A stretch of DNA of 44,559 bases from sequence record NC_047769.1; one strand, given 5' to 3'. Made by a program: the position numbers and the translations under genes. The first letter of the stretch is position 1. Each line of letters opens with the position of its first letter. Shown here piece after piece: positions 5,864-30,685 of the stretch. Below the pieces are notes generated by a model. That model made no database searches and was not told the DNA's origin. It worked only from the letters and a program-made list of their open reading frames with translations. The DNA comes from Escherichia phage AAPEc6.

Positions 5864-5879
5864 GTCTCACATGTGAGAC
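5864..5879 (+). repeat. 16-bp perfect palindrome GTCTCACATGTGAGAC (copy 1), just upstream of a promoter
   Basis: Read directly; identical to the copies at 6045, 8256 and 30670. Confidence 0.9.
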
Positions 5880-6044: not shown

Positions 6045-6060
6045 GTCTCACATGTGAGAC
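6045..6060 (+). repeat. 16-bp palindrome GTCTCACATGTGAGAC (copy 2)
   Basis: Read directly. Confidence 0.9.
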
Positions 6061-6245: not shown

Positions 6246-8234
6246 ATGGCTATTATTCAGAATGTACCGTGTCCTGCCTGTCAAAAGAATGGACATGATA
6301 TTACTGGCAACCATCTCATGATATTTGATGATGGTGCTGGCTACTGTAATCGTGGACACTTTCATGATAATGGTAGACCTTACTATCACAAGCCGGAAGG
6401 TGGCATCGAGATAACCGAGTTACCTATTACTGGCAATATCAAATATACACCTTCTCAATTCAAAGAAATGGAGAAGGAAGGGAAGATAAGCGACCCTAAA
6501 TTACGTGCCATCGCACTAGGTGGTATGCGTATGAAAGACCGTTGGGAGGTCATGAATGAGCAAGAAAGGGCAGACCAAGAAGCAGAGTGGAAACTTGATG
6601 TTGAATGGTTCCTTACGCTTAAGCGTAAGAACCTTGTTTCCCGACACATTCGCGGCGACATTTGCGCATTGTATGATGTACGTGTCGGACACGATGAAGA
6701 GGGTAGAGTCTCGAGGCATTACTATCCACGCTTCGAGAAAGGTGAGCTAGTAGGCGCTAAGTGTCGCACATTACCTAAAGACTTTAAGTTTGGTCATTTA
6801 GGTAAACTCTTTGGTATGCAAGATCTTTTCGGGATGAATACTTTGTCTCACGTGTTAGACAAGGGAAGACGAAAGGATTGCTTGCTTATTGTGGGTGGGG
6901 AACTGGATGCGCTAGCAGCGCAGCAGATGCTCCTTGATTCTGCCAAGGGTACTAAGTGGGAAGGCCAACCTTACCATGTATGGTCTGTTAACAAAGGGGA
7001 GTCTTGCCTTGAAGAGATTGTGCAGAACCGTGAACACATCGCCCAATTCAAGAAGATTATTTGGGGCTTCGATGGGGATGAGGTAGGGCAGAAGCAGAAC
7101 CAGCAAGCGGCTCGCCTGTTTCCTGGCAAATCCTATATCCTTGAGTACCCTTCTGGCTGCAAAGATGCCAACAAGGCATTGATGGCTGGCAAGGCTAAAG
7201 AGTTTGTTGATGCATGGTTTAATGCCAAGCCATCTGATGAAGTCTTTGGTAGCCAGATTAAATCTATCGCATCTCAAAGGGATAAGCTCAAGGCTGCACG
7301 TCCAGAGCAAGGACTATCATGGCCTTGGCCTAAGCTGAACAAGGTAACGCTAGGTATTCGTAAGAACCAGCTTATCATTGTAGGTGCAGGGTCTGGTGTA
7401 GGTAAGACTGAGTTCCTTCGTGAAGTAGTTAAGCACCTCATTGAAGAACACGGTGAATCTGTGGGCATCATTTCTACAGAAGACCCGATGGTCAAGGTGT
7501 CCCGTGCTTTTATCGGCAAGTGGATTGATAAGCGTATTGAGTTACCTCCAACCAACGACCCGAAAGAAGACGGATACCGTGAGGTGTTCGACTATACCGA
7601 GGAAGAAGCTAACGCCGCCATTGATTATGTAGCTGATACAGGTAAGCTGTTTGTAGCTGACCTAGAGGGTGACTATTCGATGGAAAAGGTAGAGCAAACT
7701 TGCCTAGAGTTTGAGGCTATGGGTATTTCTAATATCATCATTGATAACTTAACGGGGATTAAATTAGATGAGCGTGCTTTTGGTGGGAAGGTTGGTGCAC
7801 TTGATGAATGCGTCAAGCGGATTGGTACTATCAAAGACCGACACCCGGTTACTATATTCCTTGTATCACACCTTACACGTCCTCCGGCAAACCGTACCCA
7901 ACACGAAGAAGGTGGCGAAGTTATCCTTTCTGACTTCCGAGGCTCAGGCGCTATCGGATTCTGGGCATCTTACGCCTTGGGGATTGAGCGTAATACAAGA
8001 GCTGAAACGCTTGACGAAAGGACTACCACGTACATCTCATGTGTCAAAGACCGCGACCAAGGTATCTACACTGGAACCAAGGTCATGCTTAAGGGTGACA
8101 TTCAAACCGGACGTTTAATGGAACCACAAGCCCGTACTAAGTCATTTGATACAGGTGAAGCAAGGCAACAAGAAGTACCAGATTTACCGGACACTATAGA
8201 AGAGACTAACTTCGATGAAGAAAGTGAGTTCTGA
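6246..8234 (+). CDS. DNA primase/helicase (T7 gp4-like)
   Basis: 662 aa; N-terminal zinc ribbon (CPAC...C..GHFH), Walker A GAGSGVGKT, acidic C-terminus ending ...FDEESEF. Confidence 0.95.
   Translation: MAIIQNVPCPACQKNGHDITGNHLMIFDDGAGYCNRGHFHDNGRPYYHKPEGGIEITELPITGNIKYTPSQFKEMEKEGKISDPKLRAIALGGMRMKDRWEVMNEQERADQEAEWKLDVEWFLTLKRKNLVSRHIRGDICALYDVRVGHDEEGRVSRHYYPRFEKGELVGAKCRTLPKDFKFGHLGKLFGMQDLFGMNTLSHVLDKGRRKDCLLIVGGELDALAAQQMLLDSAKGTKWEGQPYHVWSVNKGESCLEEIVQNREHIAQFKKIIWGFDGDEVGQKQNQQAARLFPGKSYILEYPSGCKDANKALMAGKAKEFVDAWFNAKPSDEVFGSQIKSIASQRDKLKAARPEQGLSWPWPKLNKVTLGIRKNQLIIVGAGSGVGKTEFLREVVKHLIEEHGESVGIISTEDPMVKVSRAFIGKWIDKRIELPPTNDPKEDGYREVFDYTEEEANAAIDYVADTGKLFVADLEGDYSMEKVEQTCLEFEAMGISNIIIDNLTGIKLDERAFGGKVGALDECVKRIGTIKDRHPVTIFLVSHLTRPPANRTQHEEGGEVILSDFRGSGAIGFWASYALGIERNTRAETLDERTTTYISCVKDRDQGIYTGTKVMLKGDIQTGRLMEPQARTKSFDTGEARQQEVPDLPDTIEETNFDEESEF
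6845..6860 (+). repeat. Palindrome variant GTCTCACGTGTTAGAC inside the primase-helicase CDS
   Basis: Read directly; one mismatch from the perfect palindrome. Confidence 0.6.
8182..8204 (+). promoter_or_regulatory. Phage promoter (ATTTACCGGACACTATAGAAGAG) embedded in the helicase C-terminal codons
   Basis: Near-consensus; encodes ...DLPDTIEET... Confidence 0.6.
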
Positions 8235-8255: not shown

Positions 8256-8271
8256 GTCTCACATGTGAGAC
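8256..8271 (+). repeat. 16-bp palindrome (copy 3) with conserved flanks ggcttGTCTCACATGTGAGACagg, downstream of the helicase
   Basis: Read directly; followed by a T-rich stretch, hairpin/terminator-like. Confidence 0.9.
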
Positions 8272-9400: not shown

Positions 9401-9416
9401 GTCTCACGTGTGAGAC
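9401..9416 (+). repeat. 16-bp palindrome GTCTCACGTGTGAGAC (copy 4, CACGTG core)
   Basis: Read directly; flanks gggtt...cagcc extend the inverted repeat. Confidence 0.9.
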
Positions 9417-9541
9417 AGCCTTTCATCATATTGATTGGAGGTGCATTATGCCACGTGATTATGATTCTGATTGGGACTATTATGACTCAATGAATCCAAA
9501 ACCCGAACGTTCAGATGATTACTACGAAACAGAGGCAATGT

Positions 9542-12088
9542 ATGAAGACTATTGATTGGAAGAAGGAGGCAGAAGGTCGTATCCTCGTGATGGATGCGGA
9601 AGCTAAAGGACTCCTTGACGCCATCCGATATGGACACCGTGAAGATGTGCATATCATTTGCTGCATGGACTTGCTTACTACCGAGGAGTTTCTCTTCTTT
9701 GACCCGTATGAGATGCGTGACCCTGAAGCAAGAGAACTCCTGAAGGAATGGGAAGGTCATCAAGATGGAACCTTGGTTGACGGTGTTAACTTCCTGAAGC
9801 ACTGTGAGGCTATTGTGTCGCAGAACTTCCTAGGATATGACGGTCTTCTCTTTGAGAAAGCATTCCCTGATATTTGGAAAGGCTTTAACTATACCGAGAA
9901 GCGCGGCAAGGGCAGACTCCGTGCTGACCTGTGTCCGGTGCGAGTCATGGATACGCTGGTGATGAGTCGCCTGTTAAACCCCGATAGACGCCTTCCTCCG
10001 CAAGCATATGCCAAAGGTATGGGTAACGTCGCCCCTCACTCAATTGAGGCGCACGGCATCCGTATAGGCCGCTATAAACCGGAGAACGAGGACTGGTCTA
10101 AACTAACTGACCACATGGTTCACCGTGTACGTGAGGACGTGGCGATTGGTCGTGACTTGTTCCTCTGGCTCTTTAACGGGGAATGGATGGAGCACAAACG
10201 CCGTGGCGTGAATAAACGCACTGGCCTAGGTATTGAGACAGCTTTCCACATGGAGTCCATTGTGGCGCTGGAGATGAGCCGTCAGGCCGAGCGTGGATTC
10301 CGTCTGGATATAGATAAAGCATTAGCACGATGCGAGGAATTGGACGCTAAGATTGATGAGACAGTCGCAGCGTTCCGTCCGCACATGCCTATGCGTATCA
10401 AGTCTAAACCTTTTAAACCGGAAGAAAAGAATGAAGTATGCCAACGCGCAAATGAGTATGGAGCTAGCAACAATATACCTACTGTCCTTGACCCCTCACA
10501 CTTTCTTCATGTCGAGAGACGAGGAGATCGCAAGACAGTATGGAGTGTCACTACTAAGTCTGGTGATTGGTCGGCTAGCGTCAAGAAAGACTTTCCTCAC
10601 CTTAGAGGAAACCGTAATGACACGCCAAGTATCAAGTGGATTGGCGCTTACTCGCCTGTTACTTTCGAAGAGATTCCCTTGGGTAACAGGGATACAGTTA
10701 AGCAAGTGCTCTATGATTATGGATGGAAGGGTGTTGAATTTAATGATACCGAGCAAGCGCATCTCGATGAGTACGGAGTATTACCCAAGCCTTGGAGTGG
10801 GAAGATAAATGAAAAGTCCCTTACTTTATGGCAAGAAAGAGCCGCACGTGAAGGTAAAACAGTCCCTGATTGGTGCTTGGGTATCGCTGCATGGTACATA
10901 CTCGTATCCCGTCGTGGTCAGATCCTCAACCGTGGTGACGTTGAAGCCTTCGACCAGAAGGGGGTGTGGCCTTCGCAAGCTGGTATACGAAAGTGTCGCG
11001 GCCTTGTACCTGTAGCATTTAACAAGGAGTTAGGAATCAATGCGCAGCAATACTACGAAAGGTACGGATGCTGGCCTACGTCAGACAAGGATGACGGAGA
11101 ATGGCGTGTGCCAGCTATTGCTATTAGTATTGGAACTTCTACGTTCCGTATGCGTCATCGTAACGTGGTTAATATTCCTGCCCGTGGTTTGTATCCTTTA
11201 CGTGATTTATTCATAGCCGGTAAAGGTAAGCTAATCCTTGGTTGTGATGGTGCTGGTCTTGAACTACGTGTACTGTCTCACTTCATGAATGACCCTGAAT
11301 ACCAAGATATTGTACTGCATGGTGACATTCACACCCATAATCAAATGAAGGCTGGTCTTCCTAAGCGTGACATGGCGAAGACATTTATATATGCCTTCCT
11401 ATATGGGTCTGGTATAGCTAACCTTGCAGCAGTATGTGGTGTTACTGAGGAAGAAATGGAGGAAGTTGTGGCAAGATTTGAGGTTGAACTACCATCTCTT
11501 GCACGTCTTCGTGAGAATGTTATCGCACAAGGTAACAAGTTTGGCTACCTACAAGCACCTGATGGTCATTGGGGTCGCATCCGTATGTCTGGTGGTGAAC
11601 TTAAAGAACACACTATGCTTAACGTACTACTCCAGATGACTGGTTCTCTGTGTATGAAATACGCATTGGTCAGAGCGTTTGCAGTGATGCGCAAGGAAGG
11701 TGTGGCCTTAGATAGCATGGGAAACCCTTGCGGTATAGCTAACGTGCACGATGAAATCCAGATGGAAGTCCCTGAAGATGAGGTCTTGTATCTCAACTAC
11801 GACTTGCCTTTCACCTTAGAAGGGTTCGAAACAGAGAAGGCTGCTGTGAAAGCAGTGTTCGATGCAGAGGAGAAACGTGTTCATGTGGATTCTGAAGGAC
11901 GTATGTGGTCTGCTGCAAATCTCGTTAGTGTTGATGCTGATGCTGGTGTACTTCATTGCCAGCGTCGTTATCACCGTGCAGGGCATATCATTGCCGACGC
12001 AATGACCTGGGCGGGTCAGTACCTGAAGATGCGTTGTCCGATGGCAGGTGAGTATAAGATTGGTGCAAGTTGGAAGGAAACACACTGA
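9542..12088 (+). CDS. DNA polymerase (family A, T7 gp5-like)
   Basis: N-terminal exonuclease motif ILVMDAEA, motif A GCDGAGLELRVL, motif C NVHDEIQ; ORF track begins at 9515. Confidence 0.95.
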   Translation: MKTIDWKKEAEGRILVMDAEAKGLLDAIRYGHREDVHIICCMDLLTTEEFLFFDPYEMRDPEARELLKEWEGHQDGTLVDGVNFLKHCEAIVSQNFLGYDGLLFEKAFPDIWKGFNYTEKRGKGRLRADLCPVRVMDTLVMSRLLNPDRRLPPQAYAKGMGNVAPHSIEAHGIRIGRYKPENEDWSKLTDHMVHRVREDVAIGRDLFLWLFNGEWMEHKRRGVNKRTGLGIETAFHMESIVALEMSRQAERGFRLDIDKALARCEELDAKIDETVAAFRPHMPMRIKSKPFKPEEKNEVCQRANEYGASNNIPTVLDPSHFLHVERRGDRKTVWSVTTKSGDWSASVKKDFPHLRGNRNDTPSIKWIGAYSPVTFEEIPLGNRDTVKQVLYDYGWKGVEFNDTEQAHLDEYGVLPKPWSGKINEKSLTLWQERAAREGKTVPDWCLGIAAWYILVSRRGQILNRGDVEAFDQKGVWPSQAGIRKCRGLVPVAFNKELGINAQQYYERYGCWPTSDKDDGEWRVPAIAISIGTSTFRMRHRNVVNIPARGLYPLRDLFIAGKGKLILGCDGAGLELRVLSHFMNDPEYQDIVLHGDIHTHNQMKAGLPKRDMAKTFIYAFLYGSGIANLAAVCGVTEEEMEEVVARFEVELPSLARLRENVIAQGNKFGYLQAPDGHWGRIRMSGGELKEHTMLNVLLQMTGSLCMKYALVRAFAVMRKEGVALDSMGNPCGIANVHDEIQMEVPEDEVLYLNYDLPFTLEGFETEKAAVKAVFDAEEKRVHVDSEGRMWSAANLVSVDADAGVLHCQRRYHRAGHIIADAMTWAGQYLKMRCPMAGEYKIGASWKETH

Positions 12089-12370: not shown

Positions 12371-12393
12371 ATTTACTGGACACTATAGAAGGA
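12371..12393 (+). promoter_or_regulatory. Phage promoter (ATTTACTGGACACTATAGAAGGA)
   Basis: Exact consensus; preceded by GTCTAACATG, a palindrome half-site relic. Confidence 0.8.
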
Positions 12394-12450
12394 AAGCATA
12401 GGTAATCTAGGTTTATAAGGTAGTATAGGTAATTAAGTAAATATAGGAGA
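12394..12450 (+). other. AT-rich leader with phased ATAGGTAAT-type repeats
   Basis: ATAGGTAAT appears twice plus CTAGGTTTA and AAGGTAGTA at about 10-bp spacing. Confidence 0.4.
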
Positions 12451-12457
12451 TATAAAT

Positions 12458-12835
12458 ATGTCTATGGTAACTACTCTGGTATTCGTGGCTCAATACTTTC
12501 GTGGTCTTGCTAATAAGTTCAAGTCCAAGGCTATCAAAGCTATTGAGGCTCGCATCGAAGCAGTACAGGCAGAGCAAGTTAAAGTTGAAGAACATCGTAG
12601 TTCTCAAATGATTGACTGTCATAACCGCTACTATGCATCTCGTGATGAACTAAATGCACGTCAAGTCAAAGAGGTAGAAGATATGCTGGCACGTCACCAG
12701 CAAGAGCGTGACAGCCTGAAAGCTGAATTTGAAGAGAACAAGGCATCAATTGCTCTTGTACATCAAGCTGCATCTGACAGTCTGAAGAAAGAGATTGTTA
12801 TGCTGGAAATCGAACTGGATAACCTGACCAAATAA
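12458..12835 (+). CDS. Hypothetical protein (125 aa; N-terminal hydrophobic segment then coiled coil)
   Basis: ORF track; AGGAGA RBS. Confidence 0.55.
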   Translation: MSMVTTLVFVAQYFRGLANKFKSKAIKAIEARIEAVQAEQVKVEEHRSSQMIDCHNRYYASRDELNARQVKEVEDMLARHQQERDSLKAEFEENKASIALVHQAASDSLKKEIVMLEIELDNLTK

Positions 12836-12841
12836 GGGTTT

Positions 12842-13141
12842 ATGATGGAAGAAGTAATTCAAGCTAAACATGTAGGTATTATCTTTCGCGATCTAGAGCA
12901 GCGTAAAGTTGCAGGTCATACTCGTCTGGCTAAAGAGGAAGACACCGCAATCACTACTGTAGAACAAGCAGATGCCTATCGTGGACCAGAGTTCACTCAA
13001 GGTGAAACTTGTCACCAATTGAGCCTTTCACTTTGTGACACTATGGCTAGTGTAAATGTACAAGAGGTTGAAGACGGTGAATGTGTTAGTTATGTCTACC
13101 CTCTCGATACTATTGCACGTATTAAGGTAGTTCATAAGTAA
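12842..13141 (+). CDS. Hypothetical protein (99 aa)
   Basis: ORF track. Confidence 0.5.
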   Translation: MMEEVIQAKHVGIIFRDLEQRKVAGHTRLAKEEDTAITTVEQADAYRGPEFTQGETCHQLSLSLCDTMASVNVQEVEDGECVSYVYPLDTIARIKVVHK

Positions 13142-13218: not shown

Positions 13219-14025
13219 ATGGCACGTGGTGATTTTGATTTTGGTGCTCAGGTTACTAAAGCTGAAGGTAAAGTATTTAAGAACCCTGAAGTTGGTGATC
13301 ATGAAGCAGTAATCTCTGGCATCATTCATGTTGGTTCCTTCCAAGATATCTTTAAGAAAGGTAATACCACTGAAGTTAAGAAGCCAGCAAACTTTGTTCT
13401 TGTTAAAATTATCCTGATGGGCGACGATGACAAGAATGAAGATGATTCTCGCATGGAACAGTGGATGGCTGTGCCATTGAAGTCTGGTGACAAGGCAACT
13501 CTTACTAAGTTCCTGAATGCAGTTGACCCTAAAGAATTGCTGGGTGGCTTCGATGATTTCATCGGTGAATGTCTGACTGCAACTATGGTTGGCTCTGGTG
13601 ATAAGAATGACGATGGCTCATTCAAGTATGTTAACTGGAAAGGATTTGGTGGTATGCCTGACAAGCTGAAGAAACTGGTCATTGCTCAGGTTGAAGAGGA
13701 AGGTCTGTCTATGACAGGTCACATTACCTTTGACAAGCTGACAAAAGAAATCCTTGATGACATCCCAGCTAACTTGGTGCGTCAATACTTCCTGAACGAG
13801 ACACCTCGTGGTAAGAACCTGTCTGTTGCTGGTTCTCATGTAGAAGCAATAATTAAAGCTGCTCGTGAAGAAGACCCAGAATGGAAGAAGGCTAAGAAGA
13901 AAGACGAGGAAGATGCTACCCCAGCTAATCGTAAACCTCTGGATACTGGTGAGTCTGTTCCGCAGGAAGTACCTGAAGCAGAAGATACGCCTGCACCGGA
14001 GATGGATGAGGACGCGGAATATTAA
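13219..14025 (+). CDS. Candidate ssDNA-binding protein (gp2.5-like; acidic C-terminus ...EMDEDAEY)
   Basis: 268 aa, beta-rich N-terminal region, long acidic tail ending in an aromatic residue; AGGAGA RBS; assignment by position and composition only. Confidence 0.5.
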   Translation: MARGDFDFGAQVTKAEGKVFKNPEVGDHEAVISGIIHVGSFQDIFKKGNTTEVKKPANFVLVKIILMGDDDKNEDDSRMEQWMAVPLKSGDKATLTKFLNAVDPKELLGGFDDFIGECLTATMVGSGDKNDDGSFKYVNWKGFGGMPDKLKKLVIAQVEEEGLSMTGHITFDKLTKEILDDIPANLVRQYFLNETPRGKNLSVAGSHVEAIIKAAREEDPEWKKAKKKDEEDATPANRKPLDTGESVPQEVPEAEDTPAPEMDEDAEY

Positions 14026-14034
14026 GGAGAACGG

Positions 14035-14253
14035 ATGAAAGTACAAATCGTAACTCTGCATTGCAAGAAAGGAATCACCACACTTGGCGGCAATACTTTT
14101 CACTCCTTCTCTGAAGGGGAGACATACGCCGACCTTCACTATATCTGGCGTGACGGGCAGCACGTGGTGAACTACAGCGACCCTGCGACTGGTAAACGCC
14201 ACGGCGTGTCGCTTCCGGCGCACGACATTGCTCAGGTGAACACAGTTTTATAA
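14035..14253 (+). CDS. Hypothetical protein (72 aa)
   Basis: ORF track; AAGGAGA RBS. Confidence 0.5.
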   Translation: MKVQIVTLHCKKGITTLGGNTFHSFSEGETYADLHYIWRDGQHVVNYSDPATGKRHGVSLPAHDIAQVNTVL

Positions 14254-14254
14254 A

Positions 14255-14270
14255 GTCTCACGTGTGAGAC
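14255..14270 (+). repeat. 16-bp palindrome GTCTCACGTGTGAGAC (copy 5), upstream of a promoter
   Basis: Read directly. Confidence 0.9.
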
Positions 14271-14285
14271 AAATCGGTGTCCGGT

Positions 14286-14308
14286 ATTTACTGGACACTA
14301 TAGAAGAG
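14286..14308 (+). promoter_or_regulatory. Phage promoter (ATTTACTGGACACTATAGAAGAG)
   Basis: Exact consensus. Confidence 0.85.
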
Positions 14309-14358
14309 AAGAATTTTAATCGGCGATAATGCCATAACCAACAAAAGGAGAATTTAAT

Positions 14359-14730
14359 ATGTTCAAGATTGAAACTATCGTAAACCGTGTTGTTAAAGGT
14401 GCTGCTCTGGTATCCGTTGAGTCTTTCATTATCGTCGATGAAGCTGATCAACTGGTAGCTGGTACTAAGGCTTACGATACCCGTGAAGAAGCTCAGGCTA
14501 AGATTGACAGCATGGGTAACTTCGCTGCTGGTCTGGAGTTTGCTCGTGCTTGCTTCCCTGAGCAGGCTGACAAAGCCCAGATCGGTAAGGCTAACATCGT
14601 AGCTGAATATCTAGATTGGATTGCTGCTGGTAAACCAGTGAAAGAAGTTAAGGCTGCTGAAGAAGCTGAATCTACGGCAGTAGAAGTGTCTGCACCGGAA
14701 GCTCCGGTTAGCGAAGAGGAAGAGTTTTGA
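14359..14730 (+). CDS. Small acidic protein with SSB-like C-terminal tail (...SEEEEF), 123 aa
   Basis: Consensus promoter upstream, AAAAGGAGA RBS, terminator downstream; helix-prone composition; tail resembles SSB or gp2.5 C-terminal tails. Confidence 0.6.
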   Translation: MFKIETIVNRVVKGAALVSVESFIIVDEADQLVAGTKAYDTREEAQAKIDSMGNFAAGLEFARACFPEQADKAQIGKANIVAEYLDWIAAGKPVKEVKAAEEAESTAVEVSAPEAPVSEEEEF

Positions 14731-14788
14731 TAATAGCAGGTGTAGCCTCTGTTAGTCCTAGTTGACTATCACGCTCACCTCATCTAAT

Positions 14789-14825
14789 GCCCTGTCTGCC
14801 TTAGTGTAGGCAGGGTCTTTTTGCG
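14789..14825 (+). terminator. Hairpin plus T-run terminator (CCCTGTCT ... AGGCAGGG then TCTTTTTG)
   Basis: 8-bp stem with one G-U, then a U-run; near-duplicate of the terminator at 23771. Confidence 0.65.
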
Positions 14826-14848: not shown

Positions 14849-15121
14849 ATGCCGACTATTGAATCTCGAATTGAACTGGACATTAGCTACAATGCAATCA
14901 CCAGACAGTATATTGGGGTTGCCTATGATTACAAAACTGGTGAGAAGCTAGTGGAGGTGAGACAATGGGATGACTATTGGTTAAGACAGAACCTCCATGA
15001 TGCGGTGTCCTCCTTCCTGAAGGAGTGGCCTACATGCGACCAAACTTCGACTTCGGAGCTACAGTATCGGAAGACAATAACCTGTTGCTGTGGCCAACTG
15101 AAGGTAATCGAATCGCTTTAA
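14849..15121 (+). CDS. Hypothetical protein (90 aa), 3' end overlaps the exonuclease gene
   Basis: ORF track; GGAGA RBS. Confidence 0.4.
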   Translation: MPTIESRIELDISYNAITRQYIGVAYDYKTGEKLVEVRQWDDYWLRQNLHDAVSSFLKEWPTCDQTSTSELQYRKTITCCCGQLKVIESL

Positions 15122-17821: not shown

Positions 17822-18060
17822 ACAACAATATGGTAACTAAGCCTAAGCACTACGAGTTCTTTGATGGCGTAGAGGCAATCACTATCATTGCCCGCAGTAT
17901 GACCGAGAAGCAATTCGCTGGCTATTGCATGGGTAATGCTTTGAAGTACCGTTTACGTGCAGGTAAGAAGTTCAACACTGAAGAAGACCTGAAGAAAGCA
18001 GATTACTACAAAGAGTTATTCCAGAAGCATCGTCACGAATGTATTGATGAGGATATTTGA
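17782..18060 (+). CDS. Conserved phage protein, DUF3310-like (start uncertain)
   Basis: Pattern KPKHY...GNALKYRLRAGKK...EDLKKADYY recalled as typical of DUF3310; not verified. Confidence 0.45.
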   Translation: MGFQKFKLASDKLDNNMVTKPKHYEFFDGVEAITIIARSMTEKQFAGYCMGNALKYRLRAGKKFNTEEDLKKADYYKELFQKHRHECIDEDI

Positions 18061-18061
18061 T

Positions 18062-19009
18062 ATGAATATCTTTGAGTTCCTAGGTCTTCCAGAAGACCAC
18101 CGCAATCATCCATTCATGCTGGTGAAGCATCGCGGTGAAGTTCCTGAGAAGAAATTAACTTTTCCATGTTATGCACAGGTGAAACGAGATGGTATCTTTT
18201 CTGCTGTTGTTGTTCGCACTGATGGTGTCGTTGGCATTTTTGGTCGCACTGGTAAGAAATTGGCAAACACTGAAGGACTCGAACAAGCATTTGCTACCTT
18301 TCCGGTTGGCATTTATCTTGGTGAGCTTCAGTCTATGGCCGTTGATATCTACCTTGAGGCGCTCTCTGGGGTTGTGAACCCCAATCGCACTGAGCCACTT
18401 GATTTCATAGGCCAGCAGATTAAAGACAACCTGTATATCGACTTCTTCGATATGTTAACTATTAAGGCATTCCATGATGGATTCACTGCTGTTTCTTATC
18501 TCAAACGTTACGATGCTTTACATCGTCGTATCGGCGCTCATCTTAGCGGGTGCAACGCTATCCTTCCTATCACTCCTTGCCATAATGAGCGAGAAGTTGA
18601 AGCGTTTGCGCAAGAACAAATAGATGCAGGCCGGGAAGGTGCTGTGTTTAAACTGGACTGTGACTATGAAGCAGGCCATAAAGGTTATCGTCAGACTAAA
18701 GAAGTACGTAAGGTAACTTATGACCTTACTTGTATTGGCTTTGAAGAAGGTAAAGGCAAGTACAAAGGTAAGGTAGCTAACCTCATTTTCAAATGGAAAG
18801 GAGGCAAGACAATCAAAGCTATGTTAGGCAAAGGGTGGACTCATGCAGATGCAGAACAGATGTTCCACGATATTAAACATGGCGGACGATTGAATGTCAT
18901 TGGTAAAATCTTTGAAGTCAAAGGTCTTCAGGATTCAAGCAAGGGCAACATTCGTCTGCCCAAAGCGGGAGAATTAAGACATGACAAAGATGAACCAGAT
19001 TTCTTTTGA
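18062..19009 (+). CDS. ATP-dependent DNA ligase (T7 gp1.3-like)
   Basis: Adenylation motif I KRDG (AQVKRDGIF); ORF track 18044 (TTG); ATG at 18062 after GAGGA. Confidence 0.85.
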   Translation: MNIFEFLGLPEDHRNHPFMLVKHRGEVPEKKLTFPCYAQVKRDGIFSAVVVRTDGVVGIFGRTGKKLANTEGLEQAFATFPVGIYLGELQSMAVDIYLEALSGVVNPNRTEPLDFIGQQIKDNLYIDFFDMLTIKAFHDGFTAVSYLKRYDALHRRIGAHLSGCNAILPITPCHNEREVEAFAQEQIDAGREGAVFKLDCDYEAGHKGYRQTKEVRKVTYDLTCIGFEEGKGKYKGKVANLIFKWKGGKTIKAMLGKGWTHADAEQMFHDIKHGGRLNVIGKIFEVKGLQDSSKGNIRLPKAGELRHDKDEPDFF

Positions 19010-23770: not shown

Positions 23771-23806
23771 GCCCTATCTACCTTGCGTAGGTAGGGTTCT
23801 TTTTTG
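23771..23806 (+). terminator. Hairpin plus T-run terminator after the capsid gene (T7 T-phi analog)
   Basis: CCCTATCTA ... TAGGTAGGG stem followed by TTCTTTTTTG. Confidence 0.7.
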
Positions 23807-30669: not shown

Positions 30670-30685
30670 GTCTCACATGTGAGAC
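30670..30685 (+). repeat. 16-bp palindrome (copy 6) with the same 24-bp context as copy 3 (ggcttGTCTCACATGTGAGACagg)
   Basis: Read directly; lies between two internal virion protein genes. Confidence 0.9.

Follow-up and report, generated by a model that had tools for sequence, protein, structure and literature searches.

Gene 18 of SP6-like phages encodes a small, predictedly abundant protein with an acidic, aromatic-ended tail resembling those of T7 gp2.5 and gp4

The window analyzed here, the whole 44,559-nucleotide stretch of Escherichia phage AAPEc6 (NC_047769.1), encodes a small protein, gp18 (14359-14730, + strand; 123 residues), between its DNA polymerase and 5'-3' exonuclease genes. 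The C-terminus of gp18 reads ...EAPVSEEEEF, an ending that recalls the acidic, aromatic-terminated tails of bacterial SSB (single-stranded DNA-binding protein) and of T7 gp2.5. A preliminary description of the region had proposed either a decoy for host proteins that bind the SSB tail or an accessory factor of the phage replisome. The question raised by this locus is what the tail docks on and what the attached domain does there. The replisome-accessory reading is favored here over the host-SSB decoy reading: gp18 may be an abundant accessory protein of replication or recombination whose tail, of the T7 gp2.5 type, docks on a receptor encoded by the phage. This answer is put forward tentatively, as the leading candidate and not yet as the probable one.

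Phage T7 provides the textbook minimal replisome, in which the exchange of acidic C-terminal tails on the polymerase is central to coordination. The SP6- and K1E-like phages form a large sister group that is used in phage therapy and is the source of SP6 RNA polymerase. To our knowledge, the replisome of SP6-like phages has so far not been characterized. In the present genome, the gene with the top predicted expression encodes an unstudied tailed protein, and its tail is common to three replication enzymes, which provides a testable entry point. The questions that follow are which protein is the tail receptor, whether gp18 or gp16 serves as the SSB, and whether tail competition is a general design of T7-supergroup replisomes. 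Being a core gene, gp18 could also affect the engineering of therapeutic K1- and Klebsiella-specific phages.

The acidic tail of gp18 and its counterparts in the replication module

The 571-bp region around gp18 (14255-14825) is 99.1% identical to that of Escherichia phage K1E, and identities of at least 95% were found in 58 records, mostly Vectrevirus/K1E-like coliphages. This places the window in the SP6 group of Autographiviridae, as a K1E/K1-5-like Vectrevirus. The gp18 gene shows 99% DNA identity with K1E gene 18, which is annotated as "gp18 protein" and no more. The protein thus corresponds to gp18 of K1E and of SP6 (Gp20 in another SP6 numbering) and belongs to family phrog_4429 (E = 1.6e-57, with residues 1-123 aligned on profile positions 1-121 of 121). 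This family was matched by all 28 of the diverse gp18 members compared, and its function is given as unknown in PHROGs. By tblastn, gp18 was found in 211 phage records, from phages of Escherichia, Salmonella, Klebsiella, Proteus, Erwinia, Pectobacterium, Vibrio, Pseudomonas, Ralstonia, Marinomonas, Shewanella, Aeromonas and Edwardsiella. The gp16 gene was found in 214 records with almost the same host spread, which indicates that the two genes travel together. In all phages compared, the order DNA polymerase, gp16, (gp17), gp18, exonuclease, endonuclease VII is conserved.

In an alignment of 28 family members reaching down to 23% identity, the tails are 13 to 35 residues long, with net charges from -1 to -13. 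In gp18 of the window, the tail begins with a disordered, acidic linker rich in E, A, P and V (residues 97-117, 14647-14709, + strand), whose length and sequence vary among homologues. The corresponding stretch (about residues 96-117; alignment columns 99-128) contains insertions and deletions and shows low identity, while its richness in E, A, P and V is maintained. The linker is followed by the conserved acidic, Phe-ended tip SEEEEF (residues 118-123, 14710-14730 with the TGA stop, + strand). The C-terminal end is EEEF in 120 of 120 close homologues. In the wider set of 28 aligned sequences, F123 at the very end persists in 85% of members and E121 in 82%, comparable to the best residues of the core. 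Among representatives clustered at 50% identity, 18 of 26 end in F after acidic residues and two more bear F one residue before the end; of the exceptions, two are clearly fragmentary or chimeric. The tips seen were EEEF, EETF, EVDF, GEDF, DEEF, EGAF, EEAF, DAAY, DESF and AEEY. Short linear docking motifs characteristically show this pattern, a variable disordered linker closed by a tip whose conservation equals that of the core, and on this ground the tail is judged to be a selected feature and not a chance ending.

Endings of this acidic and aromatic kind occur in 5 of the 44 open reading frames (ORFs) of the window, and all five lie inside the replication module. The primase-helicase ends in ..NFDEESEF (FDEESEF at 8211-8231, + strand) and gp16 in ..EMDEDAEY (MDEDAEY at 14002-14022, + strand), as had been pointed out before. 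The helicase ending is acidic with F or Y in 10 of 10 phages, and F or Y is the last residue in 83 of 87 members of the gp16 family, nearly all of which end in ..E[FY] and a few in ..DF or ..VY. The DNA ligase carries the short ending EPDFF (18992-19006, + strand) right after a conserved RHDK. Helicase, gp16, gp18 and ligase all bear an acidic/aromatic ending in each of the 10 divergent phages compared, which extends the earlier observation beyond this genome and to a further enzyme.

Moreover, tips from one phage resemble each other more than they resemble the tips of other phages. When phage labels were permuted and the last five residues were scored with BLOSUM62 in 10 phages, the likeness was significant for gp16 versus helicase (p = 0.0002), gp18 versus gp16 (p = 0.027) and gp18 versus helicase (p = 0.029), values that are optimistic as the 10 phages include two close pairs. 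In the case of Aeromonas phage MJG, the three tips of the helicase, gp16 and gp18 set are GASY, EATY and DAAY. In the two Uliginvirus phages, and in none of the other lineages examined, gp16 (..EFGE) and gp18 (..TFE, ..SFEG) both run past the aromatic residue. That the gp18 tail changes from one phage to the next in step with the phage's own helicase and gp16 points to a phage-encoded, co-evolving receptor.

Two of these five endings were also noted separately. The ATP-dependent ligase (18047-19009) ends as a whole in ..RHDKDEPDFF, with ..[PGA]D[FY] in 10 of 10 related phages, and a small ORF overlapping the start of the DNA polymerase gene (9448-9555) ends in ..ETEAMYEDY. Judging by these endings, both proteins may belong to the same tail-bearing set.

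Tails of this type have been studied in T7, where the acidic tails of gp2.5 and gp4 bind the T7 DNA polymerase and helicase, as stated in PMC10359462 (and Hamdan et al. 2005, cited therein). The T7 tips are ..EDGDF in gp2.5 and ..NDTDF in gp4. Like gp18, gp2.5 is an abundant middle-class protein of the T7 supergroup in which a folded domain is followed by an acidic disordered tail with an aromatic end (..EDGDF, essential in gp2.5, versus ..EEEEF), and in both the tail type is common with the phage helicase. Unlike gp18, which is half its size and is modeled as a beta-hairpin plus three helices, gp2.5 has an oligonucleotide/oligosaccharide-binding (OB) fold. T7 gp4 has its equivalent in the helicase of this phage with its ..FDEESEF tail; the gp18 tip is of the same type and is more like that of its own phage's helicase than like those of other phages. 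Whereas T7 has two known tailed proteins, gp2.5 and gp4, the SP6-like phages have at least four: helicase, gp16, gp18 and ligase. What appears to be new is a gp2.5/gp4-type tail on an unrelated, highly expressed small domain.

From this analogy we infer docking by the tip, a likely receptor and a role of the domain at that receptor. The gp18 protein is a conserved middle-class (DNA-metabolism) protein of SP6-like Autographiviridae, with its own predicted short promoter-to-terminator unit. Its [D/E]-x-[F/Y]-COOH tip would act like the tails of T7 gp2.5 and gp4 and dock into a site, basic or hydrophobic in nature, of a partner that the phage itself encodes and that, as in T7, could be the DNA polymerase, the primase-helicase or both. 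The tails of the helicase and gp16, and perhaps that of the ligase, would use the same site. Docking would bring the gp18 domain to replication forks or recombination intermediates, most likely together with gp16, its invariable genomic partner.

At the other extreme, the tail could have no specific docking role and be an acidic disordered extension for solubility or for protection against proteolysis, borne by a folded domain unrelated to replication, for example one involved in RNA or translation control or in a transient assembly role. Such a reading would accommodate the family names, which are all 'hypothetical' among the records examined and carry no functional evidence. It would also fit the weak resemblance of the N-terminal half of gp18 to DUF1508/UPF0339 (YegP-like), itself a family of no known function; the corresponding Pfam model PF07411 was matched by one of the 28 members at E = 0.31 and not by gp18 of the window. 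A solubility tail, however, has no use for an ending that stays aromatic without exception while the preceding positions drift, nor for a likeness to the tails of three replication enzymes in every phage, and the gene lies inside the replication/recombination module in all phages compared. This is regarded as the least probable of the readings considered here.

Transcription unit and predicted expression of gene 18

The ORF, the tail, the AAGGAG ribosome-binding site, the palindrome and the hairpin with T-run given in the preliminary description were all found where it had placed them. Its account of the upstream region as a palindrome plus a consensus promoter needs adjustment in two respects, since the promoter is of the SP6 phage type and the palindrome, one of six copies, is not specific to this cassette. 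The promoter ATTTACTGGACACTATAGAAGAG (14284-14306, + strand) is of the type used by the SP6 phage RNA polymerase. Its 14-nt core, GGACACTATAGAAG, has exactly seven copies in the window, all of them on the + strand and in front of genes. By analogy with the SP6 promoter, transcription is inferred to start at G14303. A sigma-70 promoter was also considered for gp18 and was rejected, as a sigma-70 scan gave no site upstream and the element present is the phage promoter. The resulting 56-nt leader (14303-14358, + strand) is essentially unstructured and contains the Shine-Dalgarno sequence AAGGAG (14345-14350) 8 nt before the ATG. Its folding energy of -4.8 kcal/mol (z = -0.7) is no better than that of shuffled sequence, which leaves the Shine-Dalgarno sequence open.

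Downstream of the gene, a predicted terminator (14789-14822, + strand) is made up of a hairpin (14789-14816; 11-bp G+C-rich stem, 6-nt loop) and the CTTTTT that comes after it. The hairpin has a predicted energy of -18.3 kcal/mol (z = -4.2), reached by 0 of 200 shuffles, and only a handful of hairpin-plus-T sites were found in a scan of the + strand of the genome. The gp18 terminator, GCCCTGTCTGCC-TTAGTG-TAGGCAGGGT, nearly repeats that of the major capsid gene, GCCCTATCTACC-TTGCG-TAGGTAGGGT (23771-23797), as is seen when the stem arms GCCCTGTCTGCC..GGCAGGGT and GCCCTATCTACC..GGTAGGGT are compared. The comparison with the capsid context made in the preliminary description is thus apt. The pattern common to both terminators is GCCCT[A/G]TCT[A/G]CC ... 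GG[T/C]AGGGT, then a T-run, and this likeness suggests that the phage RNA polymerase has a preferred terminator sequence. With promoter consensus and hairpin/T-run both present, the unit matches, at the sequence level, a transcription unit of an SP6-type phage RNA polymerase.

The arrangement was also found in distant relatives. The flanks of the gp18 homologue were extracted from 11 phages whose proteins are down to about 35-45% identical. A stable G+C-rich hairpin follows the gene in all 11, with differing sequences, and a clear T-run follows the hairpin in 10, the exception being Klebsiella phage ZK1. A sequence like the phage's own promoter type, as judged by eye, lies upstream of the gene in 10 of the 11, and in Vibrio phage AS51 and Proteus phage Pm5460 a promoter was annotated at the same spot by the depositors.

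The codon adaptation index (CAI) relative to E. coli was 0.626 for gp18, the highest of 43 genes, followed among others by the capsid gene (0.510), gp16 (0.497, third) and gp15 (0.494, fourth), and the DNA polymerase gene reached 0.278; with the Sharp-Li weights used, the ranking is safer than the absolute values, and the CAI is only a proxy for expression. The high-expression, capsid-like context claimed for the gene is therefore borne out by the top CAI and by the terminator, and gp18 is apparently a very abundant product, on a level with the capsid protein or higher. In addition, gp15 and gp16, with CAI values just below that of the capsid gene, each have their own exact or near-exact phage promoter. 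There are thus three consecutive promoter-driven, codon-adapted genes without known function between the polymerase and the exonuclease: gp15, gp16 and gp18.

A predicted expression far above that of the polymerase suggests that gp18 is more than a 1:1 polymerase subunit and acts stoichiometrically on something abundant. As no recognizable SSB is encoded in the genome, this points to single-stranded DNA or gp16-coated DNA as its abundant target, or else to competition for the docking site.

High expression would also suit the titration of an abundant host target. On this alternative, gp18 would be a host-takeover protein, either a decoy of the SSB C-terminus or an abundant inhibitor of a plentiful host factor, with the acidic tail serving as bait or DNA mimic. 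Models for such inhibitors exist in T7, where gp5.5 neutralizes H-NS and Ocr mimics DNA. The gp18 gene occupies the same slot between DNA polymerase and exonuclease as the host-directed T7 genes 5.3-5.9, and the protein is acidic overall (isoelectric point 4.4). T7 gp5.5, which is abundant and binds H-NS, is likewise a small, highly expressed protein encoded in this slot. Unlike gp18, it ends in ..VREVF without an acidic linker, and gp18 differs from it in having its own promoter and terminator. There is no similarity between the two proteins, and homology of gp18 to gp5.5 (DUF2675) was rejected at an hhalign probability of 0.1%.

The tips bear most directly on the decoy version of this alternative. 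The tip of bacterial SSB (..DDDIPF) resembles that of gp18 in following a variable disordered linker and in being short, acidic and ended by Phe; it differs in its Ile-Pro and in the OB fold of the protein that carries it. Host SSB tips are near-invariant, and the Ile-Pro-Phe of proteobacterial SSB is what its partners recognize. In contrast, gp18 tips vary between phages, and neither I-P-F nor P-F was present in any of the homologue tips examined. Tails that track the helicase and gp16 of their own phage would be unexpected in bait for a conserved host pocket, and the decoy proposal of the preliminary description is not upheld. Host-takeover genes are moreover usually variable, whereas the gp18 gene belongs to the strict core of phages that infect at least 12 genera. 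Host takeover in either form is considered improbable and ranks second among the alternatives.

Fold of the gp18 domain and its possible action

Residues 1-96 of gp18 (14359-14646, + strand) form a folded alpha/beta domain in an AlphaFold2 model built on a deep alignment spanning 23-98% identity. The model has a beta-hairpin (3-13/16-26), an extended segment and three helices (42-51, 55-65 and 71-89). The predicted local distance difference test score was 77 overall, about 87 in the core and 83-89 per 10-residue block over residues 1-90, and fell below 50 from residue 98 to the end; with a shallow alignment it was 64. The body had been described as helical and not of the OB type. The second part agrees with the model, and the first does not, as the hairpin precedes the helices. 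A canonical OB fold, for which structure prediction had been suggested as a check, was not found, so that gp18 is not simply a conventional SSB. A structural neighbor search with the model returned no convincing neighbor.

The best-conserved core residues are K37, A45, G58, K77, A78, N79, A82, W87 and G91, of which K37, G58, K77, N79, W87 and G91 are kept in 92-96% of the 28 aligned sequences. The 28-member profile found nothing below E = 0.97 among all PDB chain sequences, T7 gp2.5 included. Searches of Pfam, NCBIfam, PHROGs and PDB profiles, an exhaustive hidden Markov model search and two word-indexed searches returned the gp18 family only, without a functional name. The word-indexed search gave 210 close relatives, none with a functional name, and the exhaustive search gave only 29 proteins at E <= 0.001 among 1.84 billion cluster representatives. 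A functional study of gp18 was not found in a literature search that did not extend to the original SP6 and K1-5 genome papers. In a 2016 genome paper, the gp18 homologue was entered as "Unknown".

The window encodes no recognizable SSB, as judged from PHROGs, Pfam/NCBIfam and the annotation of the window. Could gp18 itself be a single-stranded DNA-binding protein whose fold is new and not OB? It would in that case be the SSB that SP6-like phages seem to lack, or share this role with gp16 in a two-protein system. As is usual for an SSB, the linker and tip would then auto-inhibit the DNA-binding surface and recruit partners. A domain followed by a variable acidic linker and an aromatic tip is the architecture of E. 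coli SSB, T7 gp2.5 and T4 gp32, and the highest predicted expression in the genome would suit a DNA-coating protein. The best-conserved core residues include K37, K77, Y84 and W87. The 95-residue core, however, has a net charge of -3 in this phage, and it resembles no DNA-binding fold. The charge in itself is not disqualifying, since the core of T7 gp2.5 is also near neutral (+1). In addition, gp16, which is longer, abundant and tailed, is an equal or better SSB candidate. This is the foremost of the alternatives, and it is still held to be unlikely.

The status of gp16 was considered separately. The label 'SSB-like' reflects its tail, length (268 residues), own promoter and high CAI. Homology to T7 gp2.5 was rejected, as hhalign with 7- and 40-sequence profiles gave a probability of 0.1% and nothing was found in PDB and Pfam. 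Searches of gp16 against PDB, Pfam and PHROGs revealed no function, and its 87 named relatives are all "hypothetical".

The N-termini of gp16 (13219-13260) and of the 5'-3' exonuclease (15034-15075) begin with a common motif, F-[DN]-[FY]-G-[AG]-x-[VIL]. The sequences are MARGDFDFGAQV in gp16 and MRPNFDFGATV in the exonuclease, and the two proteins are otherwise unrelated. The motif was present in both proteins in 9 of 10 phages; it is missing from the annotated gp16 of MJG, probably owing to a misannotated start. The F-[DN]-[FY]-G peptide looks like a second docking peptide common to the replication/recombination module. Taken further, these features could describe a 'many-tails' replisome, in which at least four proteins, the helicase, gp16, gp18 and the ligase, would use their nearly identical acidic/aromatic C-termini to vie for a single docking site or pass it from one to the next. 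There, gp18, with a fold that has no known counterpart, would be either a new type of non-OB binder of single-stranded DNA or an abundant adaptor that holds gp16 and the exonuclease by their common F-[DN]-[FY]-G peptide and brings them to the fork. Such a scheme is given little credence, less than host takeover and somewhat more than a mere solubility tail.

As for the favored reading of gp18 as an accessory protein docked by its tail, several observations weigh against it, besides the close pairs in the permutation set and the use of CAI as a proxy. The distant homologues P0134, P0137, P0142 and P0147 lack the aromatic tip. The gp18 core is mildly acidic to neutral (net charge -5 to +1 across the family), without a nucleic-acid-binding signature. 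In T7 DNA polymerase, the 'front basic patch' KWKRRW aligns to HWGRIR in the polymerase of this phage and is thus partly kept, and the thumb region is not alignable. Finally, if gp18 were a polymerase partner and nothing more, there would be no need to express it so much more strongly than the polymerase (CAI 0.28), and its abundance calls for an additional stoichiometric role.

The intergenic palindrome and the neighboring genes

A perfect 16-bp palindrome, GTCTCACGTGTGAGAC (14255-14270), lies 2 nt after the stop codon of gp17. As RNA it would form a hairpin of -7.2 kcal/mol (z = -2.6). Six copies are present in the window against 0 expected (5864-5879, 6045-6060, 8256-8271, 9401-9416, 14255-14270 and 30670-30685), all of them intergenic and 2-74 nt past a stop codon. 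A phage promoter comes directly downstream of three copies, and three are embedded as the core of extended hairpins of 10-12 bp. A 16-17-bp version, GTCTCAC-N(2-3)-GTGAGAC, is also repeated in Pseudomonas phage Nerthus, Vibrio phage AS51, Erwinia phage Era103 and Aeromonas phage MJG, with protein identities of no more than 35-45%. At the same place, a variant GT(C/T)(C/T)AAC..GTTGGAC is perfect in Pm5460 and PP1 and has one mismatch in SP6. A role as an operator of gene 18 was rejected, given the six copies in the window, its presence in distant phages and its constant position after stop codons. The palindrome is a genome-wide intergenic element, which here marks the end of the gp16-gp17 unit. 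What is conserved is the sequence and not merely the structure, which suggests that a conserved phage factor recognizes the element or that it serves as a signal for processing or pausing. No RNA family of Rfam was matched anywhere in the window, the palindrome included, and no description was found in a literature search on the palindrome sequence.

The local gene order starts with the DNA polymerase (9515-12088), followed by gp15 (12378-12835 region; 125 residues, coiled-coil-like, phrog_7450), gp15.5 (12842-13141; phrog_8057 family), gp16 (13219-14025) and gp17 (14035-14253). Downstream of gp18 come gp19, the 5'-3' exonuclease, endonuclease VII, a metallophosphoesterase and the ligase. A 67-residue antisense ORF on the minus strand (14248-14451) overlaps the gp18 promoter and start; it is without support and almost certainly spurious. 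The gp17 protein has a weak match to phrog_8057, the gp15.5 family (E = 3e-4), so that gp15.5 and gp17, the small proteins on either side of gp16, may be distant paralogues. In Vibrio phage AS51, an unannotated gp15.5-like ORF was found inside the 573-bp gap before the gp18 homologue.

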